64,000 nucleotides of DNA from a virus: IMG/VR virus record IMGVR_UViG_3300045988_113306; one strand, given 5' to 3'. Below the pieces are notes generated by a model. The model saw only the letters and a list, made by a program, of their open reading frames with translations, searched no databases and was not told where the DNA came from. Positions 7,922-62,829 of the stretch are shown here, one piece after another. The translations under genes were made by a program, and so were the position numbers. Numbering within the stretch: position 1 is the first letter of the stretch; each line of letters starts with the position of its first letter.

Positions 7922-8075
7922 GACAACCTCCTCCCCGAATGGCCCAAGTGCCTGTGACAAGCACATTGGCGCGGTTAACGAAGTCATCGACAAACAGATT
8001 GCCGACAAAAACAGTGGCCTCAGATACATCGAAATGCTCATCTATCTCGTCCTCCTTGCAGGTAATGAGGTTGTA

Positions 8076-8152: not shown

Positions 8153-9355
8153 TTATGATACTGTATATGTTCCCTCTCCTTGATTGTATAGCTGTGTCGG
8201 GATTGCGTTGTTGACCACCGTCCATTGATAGCGGTAGTTGCCAGCCGGGAGTGAGCCGACTATTGGCAGGGTGATGGACTGATTGAACGTGCTTGTCAAT
8301 TGCGTGAGCGGTTGTCCGTCCCACTTCCTTGTTCCCGATGCCGATGTCAAGACTGAGCCGTTGGGATTGAAAATGGTGATTGTGTATTTATAGGTCACCG
8401 ATGCGTCGGGGTCAACCCACTTCCAACTAACAGTGCCCTTGTTACCCGAAAGCATGAGAAAGTTGAGCATGATGCCCTTGGAGGCACTGCGCTTGAACGG
8501 AATCTGTTTGCCCGATGCTCCGGGACAAGCGAAGCCTTGCAAGCCAACTACGAGCGAGGTCACATCCACCCACTTGCGGAGGTCGATGCCGAGAGCCTGC
8601 GAGTTGATTTCGTTGATGAAAAAGACGGTCACAAGTCGCGTCAACTCACTTTTGAAAAAAGATTCAGGGGATTGGTCGCCCGAATGGGTGTAGTCGTTGA
8701 TTTCGGCGTACCATCCGCGCTGCCATGCACCCGACACTTGCATCTGCGCGTAGTCGTTGCCGCTAACTCTCTTCAATGCACGCGCCCAATTCTTCGTGCG
8801 CTGTATATCGCTGACGAGGATGCACGGATAGGATTGGCCAAGGGTGGCGGTAACGGAGGCATTGCCCACGGCTATGATGTCGTTGATGTCGACGCCCGTA
8901 GTGTTGGAGGTAGAGTAGTTGATGTCGACCGACAGTGCGCTTGCTCCCGTCTTGTCGTAGTAGGCGATGTCGGGCAATGTGCCTTGTGGGTTCATCACGG
9001 CGTTATGGTCGTAACCGTCGAAGTCGGTGCCTCGCAGCCAATCGATGCCGGGTCGCACCTTTTGGTATTCAAAGGTGCAGTCATGCAAGTTTTTAATATA
9101 TCCGAAAACATCGCCGACTTTTAGTCCGTAAAAAATGCCTTGATTGTTGTCGGCGGCGGTTCCGGCGAATTGCGCAGTAGTCAAAGCCTCAAAGCCGTAG
9201 CCGCGGATAGGCTTTATCTTGGAAGCAGGGTTGATGTTATCGGAAATGAAAGCATCCTGCGCGGATGTTGCGCCGTTGACGGGGATGTTCAAGACCGGGA
9301 ATATGTCCGCTTCAAAACTTACAGGGCCGAAGATTTTTCCGTTACTGTGTCCCAT
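8153..9355 (-). CDS. tail fibre / receptor-binding protein paralogue 1
   Basis: 400-aa ORF whose start overlaps the stop of the giant fibre gene (TAATG). N-terminal and central similarity to 6530..7921. Confidence 0.65.
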   Translation of the reverse strand: MGHSNGKIFGPVSFEADIFPVLNIPVNGATSAQDAFISDNINPASKIKPIRGYGFEALTTAQFAGTAADNNQGIFYGLKVGDVFGYIKNLHDCTFEYQKVRPGIDWLRGTDFDGYDHNAVMNPQGTLPDIAYYDKTGASALSVDINYSTSNTTGVDINDIIAVGNASVTATLGQSYPCILVSDIQRTKNWARALKRVSGNDYAQMQVSGAWQRGWYAEINDYTHSGDQSPESFFKSELTRLVTVFFINEINSQALGIDLRKWVDVTSLVVGLQGFACPGASGKQIPFKRSASKGIMLNFLMLSGNKGTVSWKWVDPDASVTYKYTITIFNPNGSVLTSASGTRKWDGQPLTQLTSTFNQSITLPIVGSLPAGNYRYQWTVVNNAIPTQLYNQGEGTYTVS

Positions 9356-12300
9356 TATGCAATCCTCCTTTCCATTTTATTTAACTGTTGTTTAAGCTGT
9401 TGATTCTCGTGCCTTAGTTGTCGCACCTCTTGTTTGAGTGTAGATACATCGTCCTTGACGCCGAGAAGCTCGGAGGCCATCGAGATGACACAGGCGAGGG
9501 CGACTTTCGAGTAGTCCATACCGAGGAATCCGTTGTCGCGAACATACACCGACAGTGGTAGATGCTTATGCCAATACTGTGCGATAGACCCCATGTCGAG
9601 CTTTCCGTTATCGCGCCATGCATATATAATGTTGGGTGCCTTGGCGATGGTCGTGAGCGGCACGTGGATGTCGCGGAGTATTCGTTTTTGTCGGGCGTCG
9701 GATGATGTGTTTTGGCCCCTGAACGACATGTAGCCGTCAGTCCAAATGCCAGTCTTGGCAAATACCACGCCCGATGAATTGGCATAAAACTTGGAACCAC
9801 CATCGCCGACCTGTATTGTGCCGTCGGTGCGGATGATAGCACTTCCCGCATAAACGTTCTTGTTGTTGTAGGTGCGAATCCAAACGTTGTCGCCCATGTG
9901 CCAGCCGCCACCGTAGGTTATGTTGTACCACCCCGTCGCGCCAATCGTGCCGACCCATCCGGCGACGGACAGCTTCTCGGAGGGCGAGGCAGTGCCGATT
10001 CCTACCTTTCTGTCGTTGGTAACGAACAGAGCTGTATAAGTCGGGCCTACGCCAATGCCGGTCGATAACGCTTGAACATAGGTGATGTTTCCACCTACAT
10101 TAAATTTCAGATAAGGATTGTTTGAAATGTTATGCAGCGAGTAGTAGGTTGAGGTTATCGTGCCAACGCCCGTCATATTGCCAGACACGTTGTTGCTTCC
10201 GTCGAAGCTCTGCCCCCAAAGGGTGCGAGAAGCGGAGAGAGCGTCGGCAAATTTTGCGCGGAGGGAGCCATAATTGTTCTTCGAGAGGTCCCAAGTCTGG
10301 CAGTGCGACAAGTACCAATATAGTGGATTTGCCGCGGTCGCATTTGCCCCTTTAAGCGATACGTAACCGCCTAAACTGAAAGTGCCGCTTGCACCACAAT
10401 AGACTACTCTCGCATACCATTCCCATTTACCAGTGCCTGCTGTGCTTGTTATCCATACATCGGAATAGTTGTCGCCCATGGGATTTGAGTTAGCATTGAC
10501 GTTATATCCTACAGGAATTTTGGCTCGGAATATTTGCATGAACACGGCATTGGCGCGTGATTGTATCGATTGCACAAAACCACCGAGCCAAGGTTCAGCC
10601 GCACCCGTGACTTTAATCTGTAAGATGTACCCCGAAGAGCTGGCCGACGCTTGATTGTCGGCTATGCGCGTTACTGTCACGTTGCCGTTTTGTAAGTTAT
10701 TGTAAACACCAACATTGTTGGTGCCGCTTGCAAACTCGGGATCAATGTACAGCGGGGTGCCGTGCTGCATCCCGAAAGCATTAAATGGCATGTTTCCGAC
10801 AGTCAGCGAGGAGTTGATTGCAGGGTGTTCGACCCTATAGCCACGTACGGAATCAAGATGCAGCCCATCCAACAAATCGGCATTCATGTTGGTCACCACA
10901 TTGGTGTTGGTCATCGAGCCACCGGAGCGTGCGAGGTAGTCGGAGGCTGATGCGGTGGCCATAGTGCCGAAGCGACCACGGTCGCAGTACTGGAGATTGG
11001 AGCTTGTGCCTTTATAGCAGCCATTCCAATACGCAAGAACGGCTATCGTCGGCACTGATGAGTTGCCAGTATCGTTATTAACCCAACCCAAATCACAAGG
11101 GGCGGTAGCCGTTTTCTTTGTAATGACCGAGCCGTCGGCCATTAGGAACTGCGAGGCGGTGCCGCCTGATTTGATGAAAGAACCCATTGTCAAAGACCCA
11201 TCTTGTGAAATGCGGCCTATATATCCAGTGTACGAATAATTGGTGTGGGTGTTGATGCGGAGTGAGCCGTTGGTATCGGGAGCGAAATAGATTCCATTTG
11301 GCCCCCCCTTGAACATCAACGCCTGTTCGATTTTTGTGTAGTTTGTGAATGTTTTCGCTCCCGTTATCGTCTGTGCCGTATCTGTCGTAACATACTGCGC
11401 AGCGGCCTTGCCGCCAAGCGAGTTGGCGTTGGCTACGGTGGAGTCGATGAAGGCGAGCGTGCGCCAACCGTAATCAGTGCCATTATGTTTACGGTGCGTG
11501 TATATGTTGTCGGAGTGGAAGTCGAACGCAAGCACACGGCTGTAATAAGTGTCGCCGTTGCCATGGTTGAGCTTGATTACACTGTACCAATTCTGTGTCG
11601 GAGCGTCCCATGCTTTCCAACCATTAGGTTTCTGCATGAACTGAACCGCGCCGCTGACATTGTGGCCATTGTTGTAGTTGACAAGTCTGGCGGTTACCTC
11701 TCCATTATGCACTCCGTCGAGCAAGTCCGCGTCGAGGCCGGAGTTGTGCCCGTCGTTGCCTGAGTGCCAAAGCGTATAGGTGTTGTACTTCAGCTCGTTA
11801 TTGCCGACAATTAGGTTGTACTTGCCGACGGCATCCACCGTCGGCTCTGAAGAGCCGACGGGATTGATGATTATGCGCTTGGCGGTGTTGTGATAACCTA
11901 TTTGGGCGATGATTGCATTGGCTGTATTTTTGAACCCGTAACAAACGTATTGCGAATTATCGGTGCTGTTTTTGAGGTATACATCTTTCGCAAGCATGGT
12001 CAGATGACCCGTCATTGTATCGCCCGCTTTGTTGACGAACGCCCCGTTAGCCCACGATTGTGTTGCGTAGCCGTGTGAGCTTAGATAGTTTGATAGCGAT
12101 GACTCGTCGAGGCCGCTTGTGGCGATTGTGGAATTGACCCACTTTGCACCATTCCACACCAATGCTTGCCCTGCGGCGAGTGAGCCGAGGCTTACATCCT
12201 TGAGGTCGGAGAGGTTGGCGGCTCCTGCAGAAGTACTGCCACCGCTGCCGTCATTTGCTCCACGAAATGAGAGCCAACCATCGGCATACATGTTGCCTTT

Positions 12301-15300
12301 TATCCTTAGCGCGTTATGTGTTGTGTCATAGGTCAGCTCTATCATGTGGGCTCCATCGGGACTACCCAGCCACAAAGATGTGAACGGTCGCTGTGGTGTT
12401 ACACTCTTTACATCGGCGAATACCGCAGTGTTATTAGGATTGAACTTGAACAATCCCAAAACATTTCCGACGGAGTTCTCGCCGACAAAGAACGATAACG
12501 GGTCGGCGTGCAAGTTACCCGTAGTGTCCCACCAAAGGTTGCCGTTGGCAAAGTAACCCGAACCATCCATCCTGACAAGTCCCGTAGCTATGCGGGCGGC
12601 ATCCGCTTGTGCCTGTGTCACCCCCGATTTCAAAGTCCAGCGCGGAGGCACTACCGAGTCGTTCCATTCATAGTAATCCTCCTTGTCGGTCTGAGAGCCG
12701 CCGTACCAAGTGGCTATGCTTCGCGTCCCCTTGTCTGGGACGATGATTCCGTTGATTCCGCTCCATGTAATACGCTTGCTTATGTCGTCGGGATGTTGCG
12801 GGTCGCCTACTCCGAGCGCAATCAATGATGTCAGGAAAAGTCCCCCCTCGGTTATGGACTTCTGCTGCAACGCCTCTTTGAGATAGTCAAGGTCGGCGAC
12901 GGCGTTTACGGACGCGAGCTTGGCCAAGTTTGCCAACACCGTCGACATGTTTGTTCGTGCGGCGTAATAGGCGTTCATGTTAACGGCGAAGTTGTCGGGG
13001 ACTGACACACAGCCGTCTGCATCCCTGTCGGCTGTAAGGATGTCGTTCAACATCGTATGGTACGTATTGTACGCAGTGTCGAAAGTGGTCTTTGCCTGTG
13101 CAGCTCCGTCAAGTTTGCTCACCAAGTCGCCGTAGAGCTGGTATTGTTGGTCGTATTCGCTCTTGGTGCTCTCAATGCGCACAAGCTCCAGCTTCAGCTC
13201 AGGGAACTCAGGTGGGGAGAACACGCCGTCCTGCGCCCATTTTGAAAGTCGGTCACGGGCCTCGATGGCAACGGTGTCATCCGTGTATTTGCTTGCCAGC
13301 GTCCAATCCGATATGCTGAACGCCTCGCCCTTCTCCTTTTGGGTTACGCACCTTAGTATGTCGTTGGAGTATTGGCTGCCGTATGTAGCGTTGACCCAAA
13401 GGTCGCCCTCGTCGTAGGGTGGTACGGGCTGCTTCGTGAATATGCGACGCTTGCCATCGGCGGTGTCCTGGGCTTTCTGAGCTGCAGCCAACGCCTTAGT
13501 TATGGCCTCGTCGGTTATTACCGCCCAAAAATAGGTGCCGTCGGCTTTCTGTGAGAACCTGTATGCTGAACCCGTAAGGTTGTCGTAATACAAGTCACCC
13601 AAGTGTCGTATCTTCTCGTTGTCATTGCCGTTCTCGGTGTCAATGGCCACCCATTCGGATGCTGGGGGAACGGACATGGACGGCGCTCCATCTGCAAAGA
13701 ACGTTTCAATTACACCGTCTATTTGGTCTTGTATGCCTTTTAGCGCATTGTCTATGAAGTTGCTTATGTCCTCAGAAACTCCTGAGTTCTCCTTTATGAA
13801 GTCGGTGATGAGCGTATCGCCGACCGTGGAATCCACCGTCAACCGTCCGCGTATCTCCACCCCTCTTTCCGGGGTGAACTTAACGTATGTCTTTTGGTCT
13901 TTCGGCCCTATGAACATCTCGCCGTAGCAATGGAAGTACGGGCGGGGCGGGGTCTTGGTCTTATCCACTCCGTATTCTATGACGGCCTTGTCATCCAAGC
14001 TATAGCTGTCAATGCCGTTATACAATGTTATGCACGGGGCAAAGGCATCCACCGTCGATATGACTATTGCGCTTTGTCTTGTCTTATCCTCGGGGTTTCC
14101 TAAGTGGCATAGGACGTCGCCGACTTGCGGGATGTTGCTCCCCTCGGCAAATCCCACTCCCTCCTCGACATTGGAAAGCTCAACAAAAGAGTTCTCATTG
14201 TCTACGGCTGTGACCAATCGCCAATAGTAGTTGTTGGACGCATTTTCATAAATGCCGGCCGAAACGTTGAACTCCTGCGACAACACTTGGTCGTTTACCG
14301 CAAACCGGCACTTACTGCCTTTCTCGTCATCCTTGGCCTTGAAATAGCAGCGATAGCCGATGACAGTCGTCACGTTGTCGGCTGTCTGCGTTATTTCCTC
14401 CACGAAAGAGATTGTTATTGACCCTCCGGGGGTGACTATCAGCTTGCCGCCAATGGAACTTACATTGGCGATTTCAAGTCGCTCAAAAATCGCCTTCATT
14501 CGCACTTTGAGCATATCAACCTCGGCATAGGTATATCCCGTTTCCTTGTCCAAGAAGAAAATGCCGCCGGAGGCTCCGCTCACAAAATCGCCTACCTCGA
14601 AGCCCGTATCTGACGACAGCTTATATGGAGTCCTATCGGACTTTTGCTTGTTGAGATAGCGACGTTCTGCAAGCCCAGCGCTCATCCCGCCGCCCGTGCC
14701 GCCATATCCCAATGTCGTTGCGTTCGCTACCAATGTTGCGGCCCTTTCCAAAACCTGTTCGACAAACGACTGCCCCACTGCCAATGAGTCCGTAAGTGCT
14801 ATCTTTATGTCGGGGAGCGCTTCATTGTTCTTGCACTCTATTCCGAATTCGGAAACGTATTGTTCCCATATACGACCGTTGTATTCAACCTTTATGCGTG
14901 AGTTCTCGTCCAATTCGGCCAAAAGTTCTTTATTCTCCGCAAAGAATATCCTTGACGCGGAAATGTCGAACGTGAACTTTTCCTCATTGTTGTCGGCCAT
15001 GAAGCGCAACATCTCTTCCTCACCGCGCTTCTCGGCGGCTTCGACATATCCCTGCGGTAAGTCTATGTTGATTATGTTGAAAGTGTCGCCGACGGCGGGC
15101 ATGTAGTTGTTCGTGCGGTTTGGCATTATCACGCCGAACGTGGTGGCATCCTTTTGGACGGCTATCCATATTGAGTACTTAGATGTGTCCTGCTGCCATT
15201 CCTGAATGTTGTCCTTTCGTATCTGATTGTCCTGCGTCCCTCCGAGCAATCCGCCGTTAGGCCCAACCGTCTGTACGGGATTCTGCCATACGACCACTCC

Positions 15301-17256
15301 GTCCTTTTCGACTTCCAATACCTGTATCTTGAACTTACATCCGTTGCACTTTCCCGATGTCATCTGTATGGTCATCGGGTCGGTCTGGGATGCGTGTCTG
15401 AACAAGTCGAACCCGTATGGGCCGTTGAACTTATGCAGTCTTAGATAGAAGAATGAATGTGCATAATTCTCGGCATCATTCTTCTCCTTGTCATCCTCCG
15501 CTTCCGCTTTCAATGAATCGTTGTCGTCGCTGTCGTAGCCTATACCGGCTATCTCGCCGAGCAATTCACCACGTGGATTTTCGGCTGTCACAACTCCATT
15601 GCGCACTCCCTCTATCGTCGGCTTTATGTCCTCGTTTACATATATGTATTCGTTTGGATTGCCTGCGACATAGGGATTGGAAAATACATAATATTCGTTG
15701 GTGTCCGGGTCTTTATATGTATTGTTCAGTGCGTTGTAGAATCGCTCAGCGCCCTTAGTGGCCCTATACTTGGGTGGCATGAGATTCGTTTGAAAAGGCA
15801 TCCTGCCCGTATATGACAAGCTGAAGCTCTCGCCCGACTCAAGCGTATTGAGAATGTTCATGTCGGCCAAACCCAATCCGAAAGCGCCAATGCTGTCGTA
15901 TGTCTGAGAGCCCTTGCGCCAAAACTTAGCGGTCTTTTGTCCGTTGGTCAGTCTTATGGCCGGTACCCTGAACTTAGGCAGTGAATTGTGTTTGGTGATA
16001 TTGAACTTTACGGTGACGATGACAGTGTTGTCCCTTGCCTTCAATGTACCGAAGTTGTATGTCCCGTCAGTAGAGGGAAGTATTATGCCGCCGTTCAATG
16101 TAAGTCGTTGTATGGTGACTTTTGGGTCGGAAGCCAACCAATTGCTCGTCATGTCATTGGTCGGGGCCTCGTTGACCCTCCATATCTCGCCTATGAGTTC
16201 AGTGAGTATATAATCTTCCTGTTCGGTGGTGGTGAAATTTATCACAACGTCGGCAATGCCCGAATCGGGGACGTCGTGCCATACCGAGTCGCCGGAAAAC
16301 TGAAACTTGCGCTCCAGCGTGGAAGCGAATACGACATTTTCGCCCTCGTTTATGTTGGCAAGCAGCTGCTGCTCGTTGAGTATGAGTATGTCCGACGCCT
16401 TTAGCTTCTTGTTGGAGATTGGCACCGTTATCACCGACTTGCCCCGCTCATTCTCGTTGGGGTAGTAATGAGGTATGTTCTCGGATGAGCCCTTGAATGT
16501 GATGCGATTTATAATCTTGGCGTTCGCGTTGTTCTTTTTTACCGACAGCAAGGAGTTGTCATGGCCGTATTTGAATACATGGCTGACTACGCTGTATGCC
16601 TCATTGAATACAATCTTTTTGCCTCGGAACGCAAACGGTATCTCGTATTTGTTGTAACCTTCCACCAATGCGTCCCAAAGCCATTGGTCGGAGAATGACA
16701 ACTCTTTTGAGATGCTTAGGTCGCCGTCGCCGTAGCTGCTGACGACAACGCAATATCCGTCCCCGACGGGTGTGTCGGCATCGGTCAGTGTCGTCTTTCG
16801 GTTGAGTATGCTGTCGCCTATACCGGCATATCTGAAAGCACAATTGAGTCGGTCGGCATATTCTCTCATGTCGCCGAAGAACCTGAATTCGGTCGAGTTG
16901 GTGTTCGGCTTGTCGTATGTAGACGACCACGACGGCACTACGTCATAGAAATAGACTTTGCCTAATTGCTCTCGTTCGGACTTGAACTCAAGGGAGTGCT
17001 TGTATCGTGAATCCGTGTTGTTTTTCTCCGACGACGGTGTTTGCCGTATATAATACTTCTCTCCACGCAATACGACGTATTCCTTGTCAGTCCATTCATC
17101 GTCAAGACAAGTGGGCCACATGAGAGTTGCCGTAAGTGACGGCATACCCATGCGGGGCGACTTGAAAGAATAGTCGGTAATCTCTATGTCGTGGAACGTA
17201 GGGTTGTTGTCGCCCAACCCATTGTCCGTCCTTAGCTTCAGTACTTCTCTTACCAT
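9355..17256 (-). CDS. giant tail fibre/tailspike protein with C-terminal intramolecular chaperone (peptidase S74-like) domain
   Basis: Uninterrupted 2633-aa ORF. The last 115 aa start with SDARQKRI (S74 autocleavage-type motif) and end in a coiled coil (LKQEVRQLRHENQQLKQQL). Confidence 0.85.
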   Translation of the reverse strand: MVREVLKLRTDNGLGDNNPTFHDIEITDYSFKSPRMGMPSLTATLMWPTCLDDEWTDKEYVVLRGEKYYIRQTPSSEKNNTDSRYKHSLEFKSEREQLGKVYFYDVVPSWSSTYDKPNTNSTEFRFFGDMREYADRLNCAFRYAGIGDSILNRKTTLTDADTPVGDGYCVVVSSYGDGDLSISKELSFSDQWLWDALVEGYNKYEIPFAFRGKKIVFNEAYSVVSHVFKYGHDNSLLSVKKNNANAKIINRITFKGSSENIPHYYPNENERGKSVITVPISNKKLKASDILILNEQQLLANINEGENVVFASTLERKFQFSGDSVWHDVPDSGIADVVINFTTTEQEDYILTELIGEIWRVNEAPTNDMTSNWLASDPKVTIQRLTLNGGIILPSTDGTYNFGTLKARDNTVIVTVKFNITKHNSLPKFRVPAIRLTNGQKTAKFWRKGSQTYDSIGAFGLGLADMNILNTLESGESFSLSYTGRMPFQTNLMPPKYRATKGAERFYNALNNTYKDPDTNEYYVFSNPYVAGNPNEYIYVNEDIKPTIEGVRNGVVTAENPRGELLGEIAGIGYDSDDNDSLKAEAEDDKEKNDAENYAHSFFYLRLHKFNGPYGFDLFRHASQTDPMTIQMTSGKCNGCKFKIQVLEVEKDGVVVWQNPVQTVGPNGGLLGGTQDNQIRKDNIQEWQQDTSKYSIWIAVQKDATTFGVIMPNRTNNYMPAVGDTFNIINIDLPQGYVEAAEKRGEEEMLRFMADNNEEKFTFDISASRIFFAENKELLAELDENSRIKVEYNGRIWEQYVSEFGIECKNNEALPDIKIALTDSLAVGQSFVEQVLERAATLVANATTLGYGGTGGGMSAGLAERRYLNKQKSDRTPYKLSSDTGFEVGDFVSGASGGIFFLDKETGYTYAEVDMLKVRMKAIFERLEIANVSSIGGKLIVTPGGSITISFVEEITQTADNVTTVIGYRCYFKAKDDEKGSKCRFAVNDQVLSQEFNVSAGIYENASNNYYWRLVTAVDNENSFVELSNVEEGVGFAEGSNIPQVGDVLCHLGNPEDKTRQSAIVISTVDAFAPCITLYNGIDSYSLDDKAVIEYGVDKTKTPPRPYFHCYGEMFIGPKDQKTYVKFTPERGVEIRGRLTVDSTVGDTLITDFIKENSGVSEDISNFIDNALKGIQDQIDGVIETFFADGAPSMSVPPASEWVAIDTENGNDNEKIRHLGDLYYDNLTGSAYRFSQKADGTYFWAVITDEAITKALAAAQKAQDTADGKRRIFTKQPVPPYDEGDLWVNATYGSQYSNDILRCVTQKEKGEAFSISDWTLASKYTDDTVAIEARDRLSKWAQDGVFSPPEFPELKLELVRIESTKSEYDQQYQLYGDLVSKLDGAAQAKTTFDTAYNTYHTMLNDILTADRDADGCVSVPDNFAVNMNAYYAARTNMSTVLANLAKLASVNAVADLDYLKEALQQKSITEGGLFLTSLIALGVGDPQHPDDISKRITWSGINGIIVPDKGTRSIATWYGGSQTDKEDYYEWNDSVVPPRWTLKSGVTQAQADAARIATGLVRMDGSGYFANGNLWWDTTGNLHADPLSFFVGENSVGNVLGLFKFNPNNTAVFADVKSVTPQRPFTSLWLGSPDGAHMIELTYDTTHNALRIKGNMYADGWLSFRGANDGSGGSTSAGAANLSDLKDVSLGSLAAGQALVWNGAKWVNSTIATSGLDESSLSNYLSSHGYATQSWANGAFVNKAGDTMTGHLTMLAKDVYLKNSTDNSQYVCYGFKNTANAIIAQIGYHNTAKRIIINPVGSSEPTVDAVGKYNLIVGNNELKYNTYTLWHSGNDGHNSGLDADLLDGVHNGEVTARLVNYNNGHNVSGAVQFMQKPNGWKAWDAPTQNWYSVIKLNHGNGDTYYSRVLAFDFHSDNIYTHRKHNGTDYGWRTLAFIDSTVANANSLGGKAAAQYVTTDTAQTITGAKTFTNYTKIEQALMFKGGPNGIYFAPDTNGSLRINTHTNYSYTGYIGRISQDGSLTMGSFIKSGGTASQFLMADGSVITKKTATAPCDLGWVNNDTGNSSVPTIAVLAYWNGCYKGTSSNLQYCDRGRFGTMATASASDYLARSGGSMTNTNVVTNMNADLLDGLHLDSVRGYRVEHPAINSSLTVGNMPFNAFGMQHGTPLYIDPEFASGTNNVGVYNNLQNGNVTVTRIADNQASASSSGYILQIKVTGAAEPWLGGFVQSIQSRANAVFMQIFRAKIPVGYNVNANSNPMGDNYSDVWITSTAGTGKWEWYARVVYCGASGTFSLGGYVSLKGANATAANPLYWYLSHCQTWDLSKNNYGSLRAKFADALSASRTLWGQSFDGSNNVSGNMTGVGTITSTYYSLHNISNNPYLKFNVGGNITYVQALSTGIGVGPTYTALFVTNDRKVGIGTASPSEKLSVAGWVGTIGATGWYNITYGGGWHMGDNVWIRTYNNKNVYAGSAIIRTDGTIQVGDGGSKFYANSSGVVFAKTGIWTDGYMSFRGQNTSSDARQKRILRDIHVPLTTIAKAPNIIYAWRDNGKLDMGSIAQYWHKHLPLSVYVRDNGFLGMDYSKVALACVISMASELLGVKDDVSTLKQEVRQLRHENQQLKQQLNKMERRIA

Positions 17257-17260
17257 GCTG

Positions 17261-18823
17261 TTAATCGTTAACTACAGTGGTTTCCTTTTCTGAATATTTC
17301 TTAGTTAGTTGCAATGTTTTTTCCTGCTTGTCCAACTCTTCCTGCATTTCCGCGTCTTTTTCCTTGGCCACTCGCGAAAGCTCGTCAGGGCAGCTCTCAG
17401 TGTTCTTCTCTATCAAGGTCTGCTTGGATATGGCCCCAGCTCCCGAAAGCGTCGTGAGCATTTGATTGTAAGCTTCGTTTGACTGCGGACGCCATACGAC
17501 GAAACGAGTGCGGATGTTTAGCTTTTTGAAGTCGGTGATGGCCTTTTCAAAGCCTTCCTCACCTTTTACGACCAACTCCCTTGCAAGGCCCTCCTTGAAC
17601 AATCGCATCATCTTATTGGCGAAGTTCTGCCATTCATTCACATCCTGCAACGCTGTTTCAATGTCAAGCTCCTGTGTGAGCTGAACTGCGATGCCCGAAG
17701 TGTCACCAGACAGCTTGATGTCCTTTGGCAATATGAAAGTGGTGCCTGACCCCTTTTGTATGGAGTATTCCATTTGGTCGAGCGTTTCAATCATGTTCTG
17801 AGGGGAGGGCGGTGTCAGTATCTTGGCATCCGCTTCGGGCGACATCGATGTGTCGTTCAGTACCACATTTCCGGCGACTTTTTGTCCCGTTTGGTTGAAC
17901 TTGCCCTTGACATAGAGCACGCCCCAACCATAACGGTTCTGAATGACCATGAACGTGTTGTATGTGCGCTCGTACACCTCAATCAAGTCCTGAACGTTGT
18001 CCCAAGCCACGGGGCCTCGCTTGACGGCAAGAGGGCATTCGCTGAATCCGTGGGGTACGGGTGTGTGATGCACCCAACCGTCGGATGTCATCACGCCTTT
18101 TTCGTCAGTCACCACTTCGTCGGATGATGTGATGCGATACATGTACGTGTCATCATAGCAGTCAATATATTCAACATCGTCCACCGAATAATACACACAT
18201 TCAAGTATGTGGTCGCCGTTTGCATCCTTGTGGGTTATGATGTTGAAACCGTCAGAATACTTCAATATCCGGGCCTTTATCTCGCCGTTGAAGTCATGGT
18301 AGAAGAGCATACCGACAACGCTTTCCGACTTCTGTGTCAGGACGGCTTCTGTCTTTATGCCGTCCATGTTGCGCTCATCCCATGTCTGCTTGATTTTTAT
18401 AAACTGCTTGTTCTGCGCGTCGGTCGGCTCCGTATTCAACAACACATGGCTCATTTGGTTGTTGCACAAGTGAAGCGTCTGCTTCTTGGTGATGTTCTGC
18501 TGAAACGGTATCGGCATACGTTTTGACTCTATCTGAATCCATCCTCCATTGGAGTTTTTCACCGTAATCGACGGAATGTTCTCATCATGCAGCACTGTGT
18601 GACTCCACGGGTCGTATTCCTTTAGCAACTGTCCAATGGGGACTATGCGGCGACGGACTCTCGGCAAAGTTGCACGCACCTTGGTACCGACGGACTCAAC
18701 CTCGGACGATAGCATTTGTGGCGATTTGACGTTTGTTATCACCCTATAATACGGTCGAGTCGCCAACAGCTTGTCGGGGTCGGCCAACAAGGCAGCTATC
18801 TGTTGTATTGTTGATTCATTCAT
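17261..18823 (-). CDS. putative portal protein
   Basis: 520-aa ORF one gene downstream of TerL, with an acidic C-terminal tail. Call rests on size and position. Confidence 0.6.
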   Translation of the reverse strand: MNESTIQQIAALLADPDKLLATRPYYRVITNVKSPQMLSSEVESVGTKVRATLPRVRRRIVPIGQLLKEYDPWSHTVLHDENIPSITVKNSNGGWIQIESKRMPIPFQQNITKKQTLHLCNNQMSHVLLNTEPTDAQNKQFIKIKQTWDERNMDGIKTEAVLTQKSESVVGMLFYHDFNGEIKARILKYSDGFNIITHKDANGDHILECVYYSVDDVEYIDCYDDTYMYRITSSDEVVTDEKGVMTSDGWVHHTPVPHGFSECPLAVKRGPVAWDNVQDLIEVYERTYNTFMVIQNRYGWGVLYVKGKFNQTGQKVAGNVVLNDTSMSPEADAKILTPPSPQNMIETLDQMEYSIQKGSGTTFILPKDIKLSGDTSGIAVQLTQELDIETALQDVNEWQNFANKMMRLFKEGLARELVVKGEEGFEKAITDFKKLNIRTRFVVWRPQSNEAYNQMLTTLSGAGAISKQTLIEKNTESCPDELSRVAKEKDAEMQEELDKQEKTLQLTKKYSEKETTVVND

Positions 18824-18829
18824 ATATCG

Positions 18830-19441: not shown

Positions 19442-19443
19442 AT

Positions 19444-21039
19444 CTAACACCAAGTTGAATCATCGTAAATGTTAACTCTTTGACCGTAGATGTCTTCTTC
19501 CTCCTCTTCGGTCATGACGCCGTATTGCAACTCGTCGCCGTATTCACAGGACAAGCAGGGGAAATACCTCATTGAACATGCGTCCGTCAAGTCCATTGAC
19601 CCGTCGTGGCCGAGGTTTGAGTTCATTTCCTTTTTAGTCCACAGTCTTTTCTTTCCGCCCGCCATCTCGTTGAAACGCACCACCGAGCACTCGTCCACAA
19701 ACTCGGCCAATACCGTTATTTGTGACTTTATGTTTTGGTGGGTGTATTGCATATTGGCGACATCCTCCGACATTGATATGCGACTTTCGTTGACCGCATT
19801 GACAAAGCGCATGTAGCACTCGTCCTTCAATAACTGAAAGTTCAGTCGATACAAACCTCTTGGCCGATATGAAGAAACGTAGGGCTGTGCATCGGGAATG
19901 TAGTCGGACATATACGTGGCTCGCTGTCCGTCGTATATGACATGACTGTCCCCTATGTCGTGTCTGCGCTGCATACGCTTGATATGCTCAACATTGCCTT
20001 TCGGCGTGGTCTTTTGTATTATGTCAATGTCTATGATGTGGAATCCGTTCCAAGCCAAGATTATCGTATTGTCCTTGCCTACATCCGCCAAGTCCGCCGT
20101 AATCCACTTGTCACCGTTCATCATTGGGTCGTTGTCGGCGATTGAACGGGCCTTGGATAAAATGATAGGGGCTTCAGTTTCCGAGTCGGGGTCGTAATCC
20201 CAACTGCCTTCGAGAAGGGCCGCACCCTCTCGACCACTAATGCTGCCGATATAATCTGGATTAGTTGCAAGAAGGGCTTTATTCTCAGAAACGCTGCCGA
20301 GAATAAATGTGAATGACTTTATAAGGTTCTCATACGATGCGTCATGCCCTAACTTGCGCAACGATTTGTCAATGCTCTTTTTGCATTTTTGGTACACTTC
20401 CAACTTGTCGTTCCCCCAAACGTAGTCATCTACGGTGTCGCCATCAAGATAAAAATAACGGACAACACCGCTTCTTTCGGGTATTACAAAACCGTCTGGG
20501 CCTATATACCACTCTAACATTTTACGAGTGAAGTGACGTTTATGAGGATTAGTAGTGGCTCGTATTTTTCCAGTCCACCCTGCTATACCACGACAACGGG
20601 ACTGAATGTAATTCCAAGTGTAAAAATCAAACCCTGTCAATTCGTCAAAGCATATACAGTCAGCTTGCAAGCCTTTGAATACTTCTCGGACTTTGTTTGG
20701 GTTTTCGTCAGCGACTTGACGGCACTCCACGGAAGCCCCACTTGCAAAGGTGATGCGAGGATTCTCCGATTTAGTAATAGAAACATTGTTGCCGTAGACT
20801 TGGCTAAACAGTTCGAGCATACCGCCACTCGTTTTCAATTCCCCAAGAGTGCGACGCAATACGACTGCACGATAATTTGGGTCAAGGGACGGTTCGGCGT
20901 GTAATGCAGCAAGACCCCAGCTTTTTCCTCCAGCTAAGGAACCTCCGTAGATGCATACGTCTACATTGGTGGAACAGAACAGTTCTTGTCCACCCGGCTG
21001 CGGTCTTATTATCTTCGGTTGTCGTATGTCATCTGCCAT
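19444..21039 (-). CDS. terL: terminase large subunit
   Basis: Start trimmed to MADDIRQP. Walker A-like GGSLAGGKS and Walker B-like CICFDELTGF; size and position upstream of portal fit. Confidence 0.85.
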   Translation of the reverse strand: MADDIRQPKIIRPQPGGQELFCSTNVDVCIYGGSLAGGKSWGLAALHAEPSLDPNYRAVVLRRTLGELKTSGGMLELFSQVYGNNVSITKSENPRITFASGASVECRQVADENPNKVREVFKGLQADCICFDELTGFDFYTWNYIQSRCRGIAGWTGKIRATTNPHKRHFTRKMLEWYIGPDGFVIPERSGVVRYFYLDGDTVDDYVWGNDKLEVYQKCKKSIDKSLRKLGHDASYENLIKSFTFILGSVSENKALLATNPDYIGSISGREGAALLEGSWDYDPDSETEAPIILSKARSIADNDPMMNGDKWITADLADVGKDNTIILAWNGFHIIDIDIIQKTTPKGNVEHIKRMQRRHDIGDSHVIYDGQRATYMSDYIPDAQPYVSSYRPRGLYRLNFQLLKDECYMRFVNAVNESRISMSEDVANMQYTHQNIKSQITVLAEFVDECSVVRFNEMAGGKKRLWTKKEMNSNLGHDGSMDLTDACSMRYFPCLSCEYGDELQYGVMTEEEEEDIYGQRVNIYDDSTWC

Positions 21040-21142
21040 TAATCGCCATCGTTTTGAACGCACCGCTTGGAAAGAAAATAGGGAAAGGGAAACGATGCAC
21101 AACCCTTTGTCAGCAGGCAGCTATCTCTGCCTATCCCCGCCG

Positions 21143-21150
21143 CAAAATTA
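21143..21150 (-). promoter_or_regulatory. -7 box TAATTTTG for the leftward TerL operon
   Basis: Plus strand CAAAATTA, exactly 56 nt from palindrome centre 21199. Confidence 0.5.
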
Positions 21151-21191
21151 CCTAATGACAATGCCTATATATAATAATAATGTGAAAAACA

Positions 21192-21206
21192 TTGATACTG
21201 TATCAA
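21192..21206. promoter_or_regulatory. palindromic site TTGATACTGTATCAA between divergent late operons
   Basis: Perfect 7-bp arms, equidistant (56 nt) from the -7 boxes at 21143 (minus) and 21255 (plus). Confidence 0.65.
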
Positions 21207-21247
21207 ATATTTCCCCGAAAATCCAAACATCGTATCATCCCGCCAAC

Positions 21248-21255
21248 TATTTTTG
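21248..21255 (+). promoter_or_regulatory. -7 box TATTTTTG for the scaffold/capsid operon
   Basis: Matches TAnnTTTG, 27 nt upstream of ATG 21282. No good -33 TTTG. Confidence 0.5.
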
Positions 21256-21281
21256 CACCAAACTCTTAAATAATTAGCAGA

Positions 21282-21938
21282 ATGAAGTTTACACAAAACG
21301 ACGCCTTTAAAAAGATTAAGGGCATCCTGACACGAGGCGGGAAAGACCTGCAAATGTCAGAAAGAAGCATCATGGAGCAGATTGACAGCCTTTCGGCCCT
21401 GATTGCAAACGACGACATGGAGTTGGACGATTTTATCGCCAAGGTCGAGAACACTTTCAAGACCATGAACGGCAACGCTAAGAAGGACTACTCCGATTTC
21501 GTCAACAAGTGGAAAGAGGAACACCCCGAAGCCGACCCTCCACAAAACGAGCCTAAGCCCAACGACCAAACAAAGGTCAACCCTGAGCTTGAAGCCCTGA
21601 AGGCGGAAATCGAGGCCCTTAAATCCAAGAACGCCGAGGCCGAGAAACTATCAAAGTTAAGTGCAAAAAAATCGGAACTCGTCAACGCTCTCGGAGCAAA
21701 GGGCGTCAAGGACAAGGAGTGGATTGAATCTTTCCTGTCGGAAGTGAACATCACGGAGGACTTGGACGTGGACGCGAAAGCAGAGGCTTACGCCAAGTTC
21801 TACAACAAGTCCAACGCTAATGTGCCGCCCACGCCTACGCCCGGCAACCCGAACTCAAACATAGACGATGAATTTGCGTCTTTGAAGAGAGCGTCTGAGC
21901 TTGCAAAGCAGCAGCGTGAGCAAATGGAGTCAATTTAG
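21282..21938 (+). CDS. putative scaffolding protein
   Basis: 218-aa acidic, Ala/Glu/Lys-rich coiled-coil ORF directly upstream of head genes. Confidence 0.55.
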   Translation: MKFTQNDAFKKIKGILTRGGKDLQMSERSIMEQIDSLSALIANDDMELDDFIAKVENTFKTMNGNAKKDYSDFVNKWKEEHPEADPPQNEPKPNDQTKVNPELEALKAEIEALKSKNAEAEKLSKLSAKKSELVNALGAKGVKDKEWIESFLSEVNITEDLDVDAKAEAYAKFYNKSNANVPPTPTPGNPNSNIDDEFASLKRASELAKQQREQMESI

Positions 21939-21957
21939 AAACTTAACACACAAAAAC

Positions 21958-22701
21958 ATGGCAAATATTACAAAAATGGCCGGTGGATATTTTGGCGGGC
22001 GTTCACTCGTTCAGCAAACCGGCACTAAAGGCGGTGCTCGTCACGTCTTTGTAAAATTCGACGACATAAAGGACGACCTTGTGTTCCCGACATTCGGTGG
22101 ACAGGTCATGAATCCGTTTCCCGGCGCTGCCAAGTTATTCGCTGGCGACCTAATGGAATTCCGAACTGAAACCGACGGACTTAAAGGCAAGGTTTGGATT
22201 CTCAAGACCTATGAGGTCGTTTCCGCTTCCGGCACAACCGTGAACATCGTTCGCGACGGTTATCATCACATCCCATTTGTAAGCGATGTTCTCACAGTGG
22301 CTCCCGAAACCATCGGCGGAACTGGCGCAGCAATGACAGTCGTAGCAGTCACCAAGACCAAGGTAGACACTCAGGATGTATGGGCGTTGACACTTTCCGC
22401 AGCTCCCACAACCGCTCCCGCAAAGGGCGACATCCTCGTTGAGTGCGACTCAACAGGCAAGATGTTGGTGAAAAACATAAACGCTTGTGCTGCATGGGAT
22501 TATGACTTTATGTGGTCGCAAGCCGCCGACCCGACCGACGAGGATGAGTTTGAGGCCGCCCGCTACTTCCTCACTCCGACTCTCCGTGGAACAATTTATG
22601 AGTCAAGAATGAGCCCCATGCCTAAATGCGTGAAGGATTTGAACATTTCCAACATCAACGGATGGTTCCGCTTCGACGCGCTTAACAAACCGAATGTTTA
22701 A
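21958..22701 (+). CDS. hypothetical head protein (decoration or second capsid component)
   Basis: Start trimmed to MANITKMAGG. 247 aa, between the scaffold and the putative major capsid gene. Confidence 0.5.
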   Translation: MANITKMAGGYFGGRSLVQQTGTKGGARHVFVKFDDIKDDLVFPTFGGQVMNPFPGAAKLFAGDLMEFRTETDGLKGKVWILKTYEVVSASGTTVNIVRDGYHHIPFVSDVLTVAPETIGGTGAAMTVVAVTKTKVDTQDVWALTLSAAPTTAPAKGDILVECDSTGKMLVKNINACAAWDYDFMWSQAADPTDEDEFEAARYFLTPTLRGTIYESRMSPMPKCVKDLNISNINGWFRFDALNKPNV

Positions 22702-22721
22702 CCATCTAATAAAGTATTGAC

Positions 22722-23906
22722 ATGAAATTTGACTTTTCAAACACCAAATACGTCCGAATGTTTGAGGACTCATTGGAGGGACGTAGAATCATATCTTACA
22801 TCCTCAATGACCCCAATCTCGTAAAGGCAAACTACACGTTCTGGCGCACATTCTTCCCTGCCGACCCCACTCCCATACCTACTGACAAGTCTGGCCGTGC
22901 CGCCGTGCGCGTTGAAGCCCGTCAACCTGAACATGCAACTATGGCCGATTGGCGAGCACCGCTTGGAAACTCTCGCCTTGCAGAAGGGGGTGCAGCTTCC
23001 GAGTATAATGCCGGAATCATTGACCTCATTGCTCCGGGATGGCAGGAACAGGCAATGGAACGCGAATATAAGGAGAAGCTATTCCAAGACCTCGGCGACG
23101 ATGCGCCTCTGCTCTTAGGCTACGCTACCGACGTTCTCCAGCCCCGTGTCGACTCAGTGAACATGGCATTGTCGAACATGGCAGCTCAGGCACTGTCAAA
23201 GTCACAGGTTGTTTACAAGGGCGGTAAAGGCATCACGGGTCCTGTGTACAAGGCACCCACTCCTGCCGAGAACTTCACTAAGATGTTCCACAATATCATA
23301 TCAGACCCCGATTGCGACATCCTTGCAGAACTCGCTGAAATCAACCAGTACTATACCGAAAGCGTATGGGGTAATGAGAATATGCCTACTGAGTACCTTG
23401 TACCCGAAGCCATCTTCCTTAACAACTTTCTCAAGAATGCCAAGGTAATAGATTGGTTGAAAGTTCAGTGGCTTCTTGATAAGGGCCAGCTTATCAATCA
23501 AACATCAAGCGTTCCGTCGAACATCGTTGATGAAGCAACTTTCCAAAAGTATGCCATCAAATACCCCGGCCTGCCTCCTATTCGCGTCATCCGCGAGAAG
23601 CAGCTTAACGACGGCGTTGTGACATCAGGTTGGTCGCCCAACATCATAACCCTCAAGGCTACTGGTTTCGCTGGTAAGACCTACCGCACCGAGATACTTG
23701 ACCGTACACTCTCGGAGAAATACGGCAACAATATCATCACCAAGGTATTCGGAACAACCCTTGACGGAATTGTCACCGTTGAGAACACCACTGGTGTTGA
23801 CGGACAATACAAGTATTGGGCCACCGATGTCAAATGCTCGGCTACTCCTATTCTTGACTTGTATCTGTACATGGCACACATTGACACATCGCAAGTTAAG
23901 GCATAA
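22722..23906 (+). CDS. putative major capsid protein
   Basis: 394-aa ORF after the scaffold, followed by a strong terminator and preceded by TTAACCATCTAATAAA. Call rests on position and size. Confidence 0.55.
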   Translation: MKFDFSNTKYVRMFEDSLEGRRIISYILNDPNLVKANYTFWRTFFPADPTPIPTDKSGRAAVRVEARQPEHATMADWRAPLGNSRLAEGGAASEYNAGIIDLIAPGWQEQAMEREYKEKLFQDLGDDAPLLLGYATDVLQPRVDSVNMALSNMAAQALSKSQVVYKGGKGITGPVYKAPTPAENFTKMFHNIISDPDCDILAELAEINQYYTESVWGNENMPTEYLVPEAIFLNNFLKNAKVIDWLKVQWLLDKGQLINQTSSVPSNIVDEATFQKYAIKYPGLPPIRVIREKQLNDGVVTSGWSPNIITLKATGFAGKTYRTEILDRTLSEKYGNNIITKVFGTTLDGIVTVENTTGVDGQYKYWATDVKCSATPILDLYLYMAHIDTSQVKA

Positions 23907-23930: not shown

Positions 23931-23958
23931 GGGGCGGGGCTTAAATGCTTACCGCCCC
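23931..23958 (+). terminator. intrinsic terminator after capsid gene
   Basis: GGGGCGG-N14-CCGCCCC followed by ATCTTTTTA. Confidence 0.65.
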
Positions 23959-23966
23959 ATCTTTTT

Positions 23967-23999: not shown

Positions 24000-24031
24000 T
24001 TTGAACAACCTGAGCCCAAGCGTTACATTTG
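24000..24031 (+). promoter_or_regulatory. Bacteroidota-type promoter TTTG-N20-TACATTTG
   Basis: TTTG 24000-24003 and TACATTTG 24024-24031, 24 nt before ATG 24056. Confidence 0.6.
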
Positions 24032-24055: not shown

Positions 24056-24487
24056 ATGAAAGAAAAAACAAGTTTAGACCTGTTCGACCTCTCGGAATAT
24101 CCGAGGGACTTCAAACAGTACTTAAAAAACTACGGATTCCACTTCACGAAAAAGTGCGTGGATTACGCCGTAAAGGGATTGAAAAAGGAAAATCCCGCCA
24201 CTAAGAAATTGGAGGTCATCGAACCTTGGGACAAAGATAAAGTCGACGACTTGCTCAAACGCTTCAACATAGTATTGGAGGACAACGAGCTTCACGACTA
24301 TGTTTGGGTATGCAACATGCTCCGTTCAGACATGTTCAAGTCAAGCATTCCCGACGAGCAACACCTTGCGATGGGAGTAAAAGACATGGTTGATGACAAA
24401 GACCAAAAGGACGGATTCATATTCAACAGATGGGTTAACGACAGATTGTTCAACGGATGCCCGATTGATTGGGCGGAATTGCTGTAG
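24056..24487 (+). CDS. hypothetical protein (first gene of putative lysis-like cassette)
   Basis: 143-aa ORF behind its own promoter. Confidence 0.5.
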   Translation: MKEKTSLDLFDLSEYPRDFKQYLKNYGFHFTKKCVDYAVKGLKKENPATKKLEVIEPWDKDKVDDLLKRFNIVLEDNELHDYVWVCNMLRSDMFKSSIPDEQHLAMGVKDMVDDKDQKDGFIFNRWVNDRLFNGCPIDWAELL

Positions 24488-31136: not shown

Positions 31137-31832
31137 CTACTGCCAATAATCCTCGTTACCATCGTCTTTTTTCACCAACACATCCTCTCCGCTCATAATC
31201 TTATCATAAAGATACTTCTCGTTATCCCGGTTATGGTATGCGCCCTCGTAAACCTTTGTCGCGTTGGCCGCCGACTTTATCAGCCAATCGAATGTGCATC
31301 GCCAATCGGTGTTTGCGTTCCCGCAAAGAAAACTGCTTGACCCTACCAATTTGAAAATCTTATATAGGTCGCCTATGGTCAGCTCACCTTGATTCATGCA
31401 AGACTTGAGCTTACGTTTGCGCTGTGGAGTCCATCGCGTAATTGGCGGCAATGTGGGACAACTCTCGGCCCATTTCTTAGATACATCGTCGTAGTCAATG
31501 GAACTTAAAGTTTCAGGTTTCTCGCCCTCGATTACTTTCGGTTGGTTGGTCGGCCGATACTCGGACTTGTACACAAGCGGGAGTATAAGTTTCTGTCCCT
31601 CGTCTATGTTGACTTGGACGGCACCTTTGTCAAACAATGACCTTAGCGTAGCATCGCACTCTTTCTTTGTTATCTCCAATGCGGTAGCCAATGCGCCAGA
31701 GCGGACGTTCACGCCCAATTCAGAGCGTGGGTAGCTGTCAATCTCTATAAGCACTACTTTTTCCAACCATGTCAGGTCTTGGTTTTCCCACAAGGACATG
31801 GGGATTGCAATGTATCGGTTTTCTCGTTTCAT
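31137..31832 (-). CDS. hypothetical DNA-binding / replication-associated protein
   Basis: 231-aa ORF next to the primase-helicase; N-terminal region looks winged-helix-like (weak). Confidence 0.5.
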   Translation of the reverse strand: MKRENRYIAIPMSLWENQDLTWLEKVVLIEIDSYPRSELGVNVRSGALATALEITKKECDATLRSLFDKGAVQVNIDEGQKLILPLVYKSEYRPTNQPKVIEGEKPETLSSIDYDDVSKKWAESCPTLPPITRWTPQRKRKLKSCMNQGELTIGDLYKIFKLVGSSSFLCGNANTDWRCTFDWLIKSAANATKVYEGAYHNRDNEKYLYDKIMSGEDVLVKKDDGNEDYWQ

Positions 31833-34243: not shown

Positions 34244-34588
34244 TCATTGTTTTTCGTTGTTCATTCTCTCAAAGTGAAATACTATCGGCTTGCTGACACG
34301 CTCAATAAGACCATACGCGAGCGACATACGCCCTTGAAAAGTCTTGCAGAGCGAATCGCATTGGTCTTGGATTTCGCGTCTGAAATGCTCTACGGAGAGC
34401 GTTCCTTTGCGGAAGTTGCAGGCTCGGCAAGCGGGCATGAGGTTGTCAATGTCATCAGACCCGCCTTTATGCTTCGGATGCACATGGTCTACCTGCATAT
34501 CCTTGCAGTCTATCTCTTTGCCGCAGTAGGCGCAATGGCCGCCGCATTTGTCATAGACAATCTGTCGTATTTTCTTCGGTATGCTCAT
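34244..34588 (-). CDS. HNH endonuclease
   Basis: CGGHCAYCG..VDHVHPKHKGGSDDIDNLMPACRACNFRKG. Confidence 0.85.
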   Translation of the reverse strand: MSIPKKIRQIVYDKCGGHCAYCGKEIDCKDMQVDHVHPKHKGGSDDIDNLMPACRACNFRKGTLSVEHFRREIQDQCDSLCKTFQGRMSLAYGLIERVSKPIVFHFERMNNEKQ

Positions 34589-39755: not shown

Positions 39756-39860
39756 AAAATAAAAATTCCTTGCTTTCGTCGGGCGTCTTGCACTCACCCA
39801 ACTACTTACAAGGATTATACGTTTTTCCATCCACAGGTGCAAGCTGTGACTTTGTATCGG

Positions 39861-39892
39861 CAAAGATAATACAAGTTTATGACTTTTCCAAG
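39861..39892 (-). promoter_or_regulatory. promoter CTTG-N20-TATCTTTG
   Basis: Plus strand CAAAGATA 39861-39868 and CAAG 39889-39892, upstream of the clamp gene. Confidence 0.5.
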
Positions 39893-43918: not shown

Positions 43919-44046
43919 CATCCGCATAATTAATCACTTAAATCCAATATTATGATGAAAGAATTGCTATTTAGCTTTGACATACTCCCACGGCTAAAGC
44001 GCGTGGGATTCTTGTGTGCAAACGCAGGATGCCGTATCAGATACGG
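43895..44046 (-). ncRNA. candidate TnpB omega-RNA / IS right-end region
   Basis: Region spanning the tnpB 3' end and downstream. Hairpins CCGTATC-T-GATACGG (44030-44046) and CCCACG-N9-CGTGGG (43991-44011). Boundaries are guesses. Confidence 0.3.
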
Positions 44047-45124: not shown

Positions 45125-45127
45125 ATA

Positions 45128-45159
45128 CAAAGATAGTGATTAATTAACAGATATGCAAA
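45128..45159 (-). promoter_or_regulatory. promoter TTTG-N20-TATCTTTG directly upstream of tnpB
   Basis: Plus strand CAAAGATA 45128-45135 and CAAA 45156-45159. The -7 box ends 3 nt before ATG 45124. Confidence 0.6.
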
Positions 45160-62825: not shown

Positions 62826-62829
62826 AACA

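Follow-up and report, generated by a model that had tools for sequence, protein, structure and literature searches.

The late promoters of phages P2, 186 and P4 are activated by Ogr, B or Delta, with a dyad located at about -55 upstream of weak promoters. In phages phi29 (p4) and Mu (Mor and C), a phage dimer positioned upstream of a late promoter activates the host polymerase; phi29 p4 also represses a divergent early promoter. Repressor and operator specificities in lambdoid immunity systems differ between close relatives. Among host regulators, FNR recognizes the consensus TTGAT-N4-ATCAA; proteins of the CRP/FNR family combine a nucleotide-binding beta-roll, a dimerisation helix and a C-terminal helix-turn-helix. 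Class I activation depends on contact of the activator with the C-terminal domain of the polymerase alpha subunit. In E. coli, the class I CRP dimer is located near -61 (PMC3105977), and a pair of divergent promoters can share a single CRP dimer (El-Robh and Busby, 2002, as summarized in PMC3105977); the same source lists 11 natural cases of a single CRP site at divergent promoters. The -7 element of Flavobacterium johnsoniae has the form T-12 A-11 .. T-8 T-7 T-6 G-5, and 4–5 nt separate it from the transcription start (PMC6847099). In full-text literature searches, neither late promoters nor activator sites were found described for Bacteroidota phages.

The DNA analyzed here is a 64,000-nt stretch (the window) of the ~82.8-kb genome of an uncultured gut phage of Bacteroidales; independently assembled versions (82,769 and 82,842 nt) match the window at 100% identity wherever they overlap it. 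A nucleotide search among cultured phages returned no match to the window, and the nearest cultured large terminases (TerL), from Bacteroides phages, are 27% identical. A perfect palindrome is located between two divergent late operons, arranged as follows.

19444..21039, minus strand: TerL (phrog_979, E 5.6e-56; homologues and synteny), first gene of the leftward late operon
Downstream of TerL, minus strand: a 207-aa gene, the portal gene 17261..18823 (SPP1_portal in relatives) and a 2633-aa ORF 9355..17256
21040..21138, minus strand: predicted TerL leader of 99 nt, with a hairpin at 21115–21132 (AGGCAGCTATCTCTGCCT)
21143–21150, minus strand: -7 box TAATTTTG (plus-strand letters CAAAATTA) of the TerL operon promoter; G at 21143, predicted start ~21138, no -33 TTTG
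21192–21206: putative main operator TTGATACTGTATCAA, TTGATAC-T-GTATCAA, perfect 7-bp arms; the central T is the centre, 21199
21248–21255, plus strand: -7 box TATTTTTG of the scaffold/capsid operon promoter; G at 21255, no -33 TTTG, predicted start ~21260, 22 nt 5' of ATG 21282
21282..23906, plus strand: rightward late operon of a 218-aa gene in the scaffold position, a 266-aa gene and the major capsid protein gene 22722..23906 (phrog_29; synteny in relatives)

A TerL start at TTG 21102 was rejected in favor of ATG 21039 because 531–533-aa homologues align over 100% of the ATG version; the TerL leader is therefore ~99 nt long. This inserted leader is found in the window and in relative L001, and in most relatives it is absent, with the TerL -7 box only a few nt from the ATG and a leaderless or near-leaderless mRNA predicted (e.g., L003, L004 and L200). 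Many TerL homologues contain inteins (PF05204/PF14528, ~880 aa). The 2633-aa ORF directly after the portal gene has equivalents of 1863–2721 aa in relatives, none of which has a recorded Pfam family.

Direct reading of the sequence places the palindrome centre exactly 56 nt from the G of each divergent box. An earlier note on this DNA, made from the letters alone, had reported the 15-mer as lying exactly midway between the two boxes, and each of its coordinates was found to be right. Both boxes conform to the Bacteroidota primary-sigma -7 element TAnnTTTG, as do the boxes TATATTTG and TACATTTG discussed below. Since the G of the element corresponds to -5 (PMC6847099), the 56-nt distance puts the palindrome centre at -61 of both promoters. 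The same note had proposed a dimer site near -60 of each; the centre coincides with the classical class I position, where a dyad is expected near -61.5 or whole helical turns farther upstream, on predicted starts that follow the F. johnsoniae numbering throughout (PMC6847099). The palindrome is upstream of both predicted starts, it has neither the G+C-rich stem nor the T run of a terminator, and Rfam contains no match to it.

The -7 word is itself enriched in this DNA. TAnnTTTG occurs 66 times in the window as compared with 45 ± 7 in shuffled sequences, none of which reached 66, an excess that fits a Bacteroidota host; a scan for sigma-70-type promoter words gave chance levels. The -33 TTTG of this promoter class is expected about 19–21 nt upstream of the -7 element and was scored here as TTTG located 18–22 nt upstream of the TA of the -7 box. 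By this measure, 13 of the 66 window boxes have one, including the boxes at 60509, 53200, 52016 and 48818 in the replication and early part. Neither divergent promoter does, as the earlier note had also seen, and TTTG is likewise missing from 101 of 108 promoters with conserved geometry (present in 7). The -33 element is weak in Bacteroidota generally (PMC6847099), and its absence is therefore mild evidence for activator dependence. We take activation to be more probable than repression.

The palindrome is not unique in the genome. Two further sites within the window are each associated with a promoter at nearly the same distance:

6509–6523, minus strand: exact second copy of TTGATACTGTATCAA, centre 6516, 7 nt past the stop of gene 6530..8041
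6459–6466, minus strand: -7 box TATATTTG, promoter of 5427..6401; G at 6459, 57 nt from the second-copy centre, no -33 TTTG
23931..23966, plus strand: terminator-like GC hairpin GGGGCGG...CCGCCCC with T run, directly 3' of the capsid gene; equivalents in relatives
23967–23981, plus strand: half-site third copy ATATTACAGTATCAA, ATATTAC-A-GTATCAA, centre 23974, after the capsid terminator-like hairpin
24000..24031, plus strand: promoter of the DUF7841 gene 24056..24487, with -33 TTTG at 24000–24003 and -7 box TACATTTG at 24024–24031; G 57 nt from the third-copy centre

The second and third copies are thus centred at -62 of the predicted starts, so that the distances to the G are 56–57 nt and the centres -61 or -62 at all four promoters, and only the box at 24024 has a -33 TTTG. 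The product of 5427..6401 resembles spike and fibre proteins of crAss-like and Bacteroides phages, and all targets of the site in the window are virion genes. Immediately 3' of the spike-like gene is an insertion of opposite orientation, a homing-endonuclease-like gene (NUMOD4/HNH_3, 4737–5399, plus strand). Outside the window, a copy with two mismatches, GTGTTACAGTATCAA, directly follows a TAATTTTG box and overlaps the predicted start of a three-gene cassette; it is retained in the L004 genome as GTGATATAGTATCAA. This conserved cassette (L266 18506–19806, same genome, ~7.6–8.9 kb before window position 1) encodes proteins of 113 aa, 198 aa and 94 aa, the last a DnaA-domain-IV-like protein. 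It is the last unit of the early block and converges on a 2093-aa tape-measure-like gene. The palindrome is hence one site of a predicted small late regulon; of the single bidirectional late-gene switch that the earlier note envisaged, the bidirectional layout stands and the singleness does not.

The size of the palindrome is not in itself rare, as 27 palindromes with arms of at least 7 bp and a spacer of 0–3 nt occur in the window. The evidential weight is in the geometry and the recurrence. Sequences within two mismatches of TTGATACTGTATCAA are expected 0.24 times in the window and were observed twice, both exact. When all 66 -7 boxes were searched for symmetric sequences (at least 7 of 8 pairs) centred 54.5–58.5 nt upstream, only the boxes at 21143, 21255 and 6459 and one low-complexity AT stretch were returned.

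Conservation was examined in 166 loci from public assemblies, JGI metagenomes and IMG/VR. TerL homologues number in the thousands; a scan of IMG/VR with the single TerL protein gave no match and an alignment query was needed. The divergent TerL/scaffold layout is general in relatives whose TerL is 44–87% identical. Exact boxes are present on both strands in 32 unique intergenic regions, of which 27 have a G-to-G spacing of 111–114 nt. Of 73 unique regions, 48 have their best dyad, taken over the entire region, centred 55–57.5 nt from a box, where about 3–4 would be expected by chance (an estimate from the number of possible centres rather than a computed control); the best dyad is elsewhere in the other 25. 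The conservation of site and spacing that the earlier note had wanted checked thus extends, as regards the spacing and the central dyad, across dozens of diverged relatives, but the sequence of the palindrome differs between lineages.

More than 30 different sites are present in the family, among them TGTGATATAGTATCACA, TTATCACCAGTGATAA, TTAGTACACCGGTGTACTAA, GGTCACATGACC and AACCACTTTATTGGTCACATGACCAATAAAGTGGTT. L004, with a TerL 73% identical to that of the window, has the same 15-mer; L003 and L283 have TTGATACTGTAATAA; and L001, whose TerL is 87% identical, has TTGTCAGCGTGACGA at the equivalent position. In a large subset, the outer ATTKG/CMAAT is constant and the inner 8–9 bp are variable and mostly symmetric. 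Some relatives have 14-bp TTG-N8-CAA sites, and in L065 the palindrome arms reach up to 17 bp.

Main and post-capsid sites could be compared in four relatives for which the post-capsid region was at hand (L089, L001, L003 and L004). The main and secondary sites are AACCGATACGGTT and AACCGTATCGGTT in L089 (56 nt from a box), TCGTCACGCTGACAA and GCGTCACGGTGTTAC in L001, and TTATTACAGTATCAA and TTATTACAGTGTCAA in L003; in each of these the post-capsid site resembles the main site of its own genome and not that of the window. The L004 post-capsid site is as in the window. Secondary sites keep one half-site and not the symmetry, which points to sequence-specific recognition by a protein and speaks against a role of DNA structure alone (a cruciform). 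In the TTATCACCAGTGATAA lineage, no degenerate secondary site was found within ~6 kb, and an exact search of IMG/VR returned one exact copy per related contig; a regulon is therefore not demonstrable in every lineage. Likewise, 17 kb of L288 contain no further copy.

These genomes are mosaics to an extreme degree, gene by gene, as judged from comparison of L001, L003–L007 and L283 with window positions 17261–25577. Relative to the window, L004 is 91% identical in the portal and 94% in the DUF7841 protein but only 32% in the capsid protein, and L001 is 87% identical in TerL and 50% in the scaffold protein. The TerL/scaffold intergenic region itself appears to be one mosaic breakpoint. None of the genes next to TerL tracks the site type, and the structural region is strongly mosaic. 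One relative, L054, is located on a 355-kb contig (UOJP01000023.1, 354,908 nt) which may reflect prophage integration or faulty assembly; the only recombinase of the window genome is a small one of the resolvase type (62812..63621).

A cultured distant relative, Bacteroides phage C3_41T2LP (OR296439.1, L290 3357–3480; host B. uniformis), has the same divergent TerL/scaffold layout. From G to G, 123 nt separate its -7 boxes, and 11-bp inverted repeats, TTATCGAAAAA and TTTTTCGATAA, are located 30 nt apart and symmetrically about the midpoint of the boxes, with a third partial copy (TTCGATA) nearer the TerL box. This architecture is related rather than identical and is testable at the bench.

From the geometry, its conservation and the co-variation of sites, which are read directly, we consider that the palindrome is probably the operator of a dimeric DNA-binding protein that activates both late promoters from a class I-like position; the binding, the activation and the start positions are the inferred part. 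The binder would be a sequence-specific dimer, most likely phage-encoded and lineage-specific, located at about -61 of both promoters and on the same helical face relative to each. It would recruit or stabilize host RNA polymerase containing the Bacteroidota primary sigma at divergent late promoters that have a good -7 box and no -33 element, the leftward one driving TerL, portal and other virion genes and the rightward one the scaffold and capsid genes. At least two other late promoters, those of the tail-spike-like gene 5427..6401 and the DUF7841 operon, would be served by this protein at an equal distance. A late activator encoded by the phage is consistent with the spacing held to ±1 bp, the absent -33 element, the reappearance of the site at further promoters of virion genes and the private specificities. 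Binding to the copy that overlaps the start of the early/middle three-gene cassette would be repressive and suggests that the same protein may shut off this earlier cassette, making it a dual-function late switch. Points against this reading are the degenerate third copy, whose promoter has a -33 element, the copy in a repressor-like position, the 25 of 73 regions with their best dyad elsewhere, and the TTATCACCAGTGATAA lineage and L288, in which no further site was found over the ~6 kb and 17 kb searched.

It is unlikely that the site is instead the operator of an early or lysogeny-type phage repressor, possibly looping between copies, that keeps both late promoters off until it is removed. 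The related copy GTGTTACAGTATCAA, which overlaps the -7 box and start of the cassette promoter and persists in L004, would suit such a protein, and genes for KilA-N/ANT antirepressor-like proteins and for a small serine recombinase are present in the genome. Immunity specificities of temperate phages differ by lineage, as these operators do, and this was counted in favor of a repressor. However, a dimer bound at -61 leaves RNA polymerase free access, the -33 element is missing from the target promoters, and the spacing between site and -7 box varies by no more than ±1 bp at four promoters here and across dozens of relatives, which suits contact with polymerase on a particular face of the helix.

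Activation by a host regulator of the CRP/FNR family, which would tie late expression to host physiology and make the palindrome types a reflection of host regulators or taxa, is less probable still. Many sites have the FNR-like form TTG-N8/9-CAA, the L033 site TTGATATGTATCAA is an exact match to the FNR consensus, and the position is that of class I. No conserved phage regulator was found among the ORFs scanned, and relatives are binned with genomes of different Bacteroidales, Muribaculaceae and Prevotella. On the other hand, more than 30 inner sequences exist in one phage family and neighbors with 87% identical TerL differ in their site, which is more diversity than a few global regulators of the host would give. 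Moreover, the main and secondary sites co-vary within genomes, as for a private regulator.

A role as a packaging (pac or terminase recognition), replication or recombination site, or as a cruciform independent of sequence, is very improbable. The palindrome does adjoin the terminase gene, the very long arms in some relatives (17 bp in L065) could extrude, and a resolvase-type recombinase is encoded; but copies are found 56–57 nt from the -7 boxes of other late genes (three by our count), secondary sites retain a half-site and not the symmetry, a G+C-rich stem, a T run and an Rfam match are all lacking, and replication-type repeats are located elsewhere, at 52.7–53.3 kb. Resolvase-driven inversion between the two copies was discarded, as it leaves the promoter spacing and the family-wide conservation unexplained. 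Coincidence, an unremarkable AT-rich palindrome between two promoter-like words, is hardly credible even with 27 perfect palindromes of this size and 66 TAnnTTTG words in the window, given two exact copies against 0.24 expected, equal spacing at four promoters and relatives that keep the geometry though their site sequences have diverged, comparative data that already refute chance.

Candidates for the proposed activator were sought in ~70 ORFs of the 82.8-kb genome by Pfam and PHROGs scans, which found few DNA-binding domains. Two had been named in the earlier note. One, 31137..31832, was rejected, as it is a DnaD/O-like replication initiator. The other, 60668..61513 (plus strand, 281 aa), does contain the helix-turn-helix (HTH) expected of it, of the CRP/FNR type and at residues 161–196; it is the only scanned protein with a CRP-type HTH, although the Pfam HTH_Crp_2 match (E 1.2e-3) is below cut-off. 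Comparison of the profile of its family with PDB sequences returned CprK (1.4e-4), CRP (1.8e-4) and also Vfr, PrfA and NtcA, in each case over the HTH only. The structural model (pLDDT 89) has a long helix followed by a winged HTH and no beta-roll, and a Foldseek search found no whole-fold match in the PDB. The homologues comprise one close relative and 102 diverged cluster representatives of ~280 aa, with a variable recognition helix. In L288, L130 and L132, a member shares its contig with a TerL of this family.

A link between 60668..61513 and the site is called into question by two relatives. Around TerL, L130 and L132 show 95.6% identity and their palindrome arms are the same, but they encode very different members of the family, with different helices and at different genome positions. 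With the comparative evidence in conflict, it is possible but doubtful that 60668..61513 is the binder. The gene has its own complete -33/-7 promoter, with the -7 box at 60509–60516. A 13-bp palindrome, TTTGCAATGCAAA (60512–60524), overlaps this box and the predicted start of the gene and may be an operator for another regulator or for autoregulation. Alignments A6 and A7 had diverged too far to be of use in searching for loci, and scans with P0231 and the L292 protein gave nothing new.

Two small DnaA-domain-IV-like proteins encoded outside the window (p94 and p99) were also considered. A copy of the site is present at the promoter of their operon, and the promoter of a DnaA-domain-IV-like gene in L204 is flanked by half-sites of the L204 lineage. 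However, the recognition helix of p94 is invariant across homologues of 50–91% identity. As for p99 (99 aa, L268 18375–18674), the L004 genome shares the palindrome but encodes a version that is only 45% identical and has another helix. Neither protein is therefore likely to determine the variable specificity.

Several other features of the genome were recorded. The sliding clamp (DNA polymerase III beta) is split into overlapping minus-strand ORFs for its N-domain (39240..39863) and C-domain (38663..39262), which could reflect a frameshift, a truly split clamp or a sequencing artefact. A TnpB/IS605 OrfB-like gene with a Cas12f1-like TNB domain (43994..45130, minus strand) adjoins the only tRNA of the window (43687–43759), and a second HNH gene is located at 34244..34588. 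DNA-modification genes are numerous, with Dam-like, N6/N4 and C5 methylases and two PAPS-reductase-like genes (window 28403–28852, 36739–38658 and 41585–43051; L268 16943–17947). An ORF-free stretch of low GC content (52700–53320; GC 0.377 over 52001–54000) separates divergent blocks and contains 16-bp palindromes, AACTATAAnTTATAGTT, at 52765, 52813 and 53041 and a 30-nt inverted pair with AATAAGTGTAtaTTTTACACT at 52720/52980. It is probably an early control region or origin, with a site family different from the late operator.

The analysis provides a precise cis-element, a 15-mer with ±1 bp spacing and four target promoters, whose position is conserved and whose sequence is diversified across a large family of gut and rumen phages. 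The rule of a dyad at -61 of a -7 box without -33 element would help to annotate late regulons in metagenomic phage genomes. A more specific proposal is that phages of this abundant, uncultured 60–85 kb Bacteroidales gut family control their late genes by private, fast-diversifying activator-operator pairs that act on the unusual Bacteroidota polymerase from a fixed class I-like position, with activators of an undescribed ~280-aa family that combines a CRP/FNR-type HTH and a novel N-terminal part; this we regard as tentative and, as with 60668..61513 itself, questionable. If true, Bacteroidota phages would have their first defined promoter architecture of the activator-dependent kind, and the pairs would make up a naturally occurring collection of orthogonal regulator and operator parts. 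Once binders are found, the natural operator variants could serve as orthogonal switches for engineering Bacteroides.

In its geometry, the locus resembles E. coli CRP/FNR class I activation, with a dyad-symmetric site near -61 and one site equidistant from back-to-back promoters. Many of the sites are also of the TTG-N8/9-CAA form, and one candidate binder has a CRP-type HTH. It differs in that the polymerase here uses a Bacteroidota sigma at -7/-33 promoters, and in that site specificity is hypervariable between related phages. The window site, TTGAT-N5-ATCAA, is 15 bp long, in contrast to the 14-bp FNR box with its 4-nt core spacer, and unlike CRP, none of the phage proteins scanned has a cyclic-nucleotide-binding domain. 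The promoters themselves are like those described for the Bacteroidota primary sigma (PMC6847099) in their exact -7 matches, fitting leader lengths and word enrichment, and unlike them in that the -33 element is missing at three of the four promoters here and at 101 of 108 in relatives.

As in P2, 186 and P4, several late promoters share an element, and the divergent terminase/portal and scaffold/capsid operons, activator-dependent in those phages, are here inferred to be so. However, P2 has a separate TGT-N12-ACA element for each promoter and a small zinc-finger activator, whereas here one site of unrelated motif serves both promoters; P2-type sites are conserved and those described here diversify. 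No Ogr/Delta-like domain was found in the ORFs scanned with Pfam or PHROGs. The copy in the repressor position hints at dual use like that of phi29 p4. In phi29, the divergent promoters are regulated in opposite senses, whereas both promoters here apparently drive late structural operons and the geometry is symmetric. As in lambdoid immunity, operators change between mosaic relatives, with all copies of one genome changing together, but lambdoid operators overlap early promoters in a compact module and the sites here are at -61 of dispersed late promoters. Taken together, CRP, P2 Ogr, Mu C and phi29 p4 already exemplify the principle; what is new is the phylum-specific promoter type, the single site shared by the terminase and capsid operons, and the family-wide conservation of position with diversified specificity.
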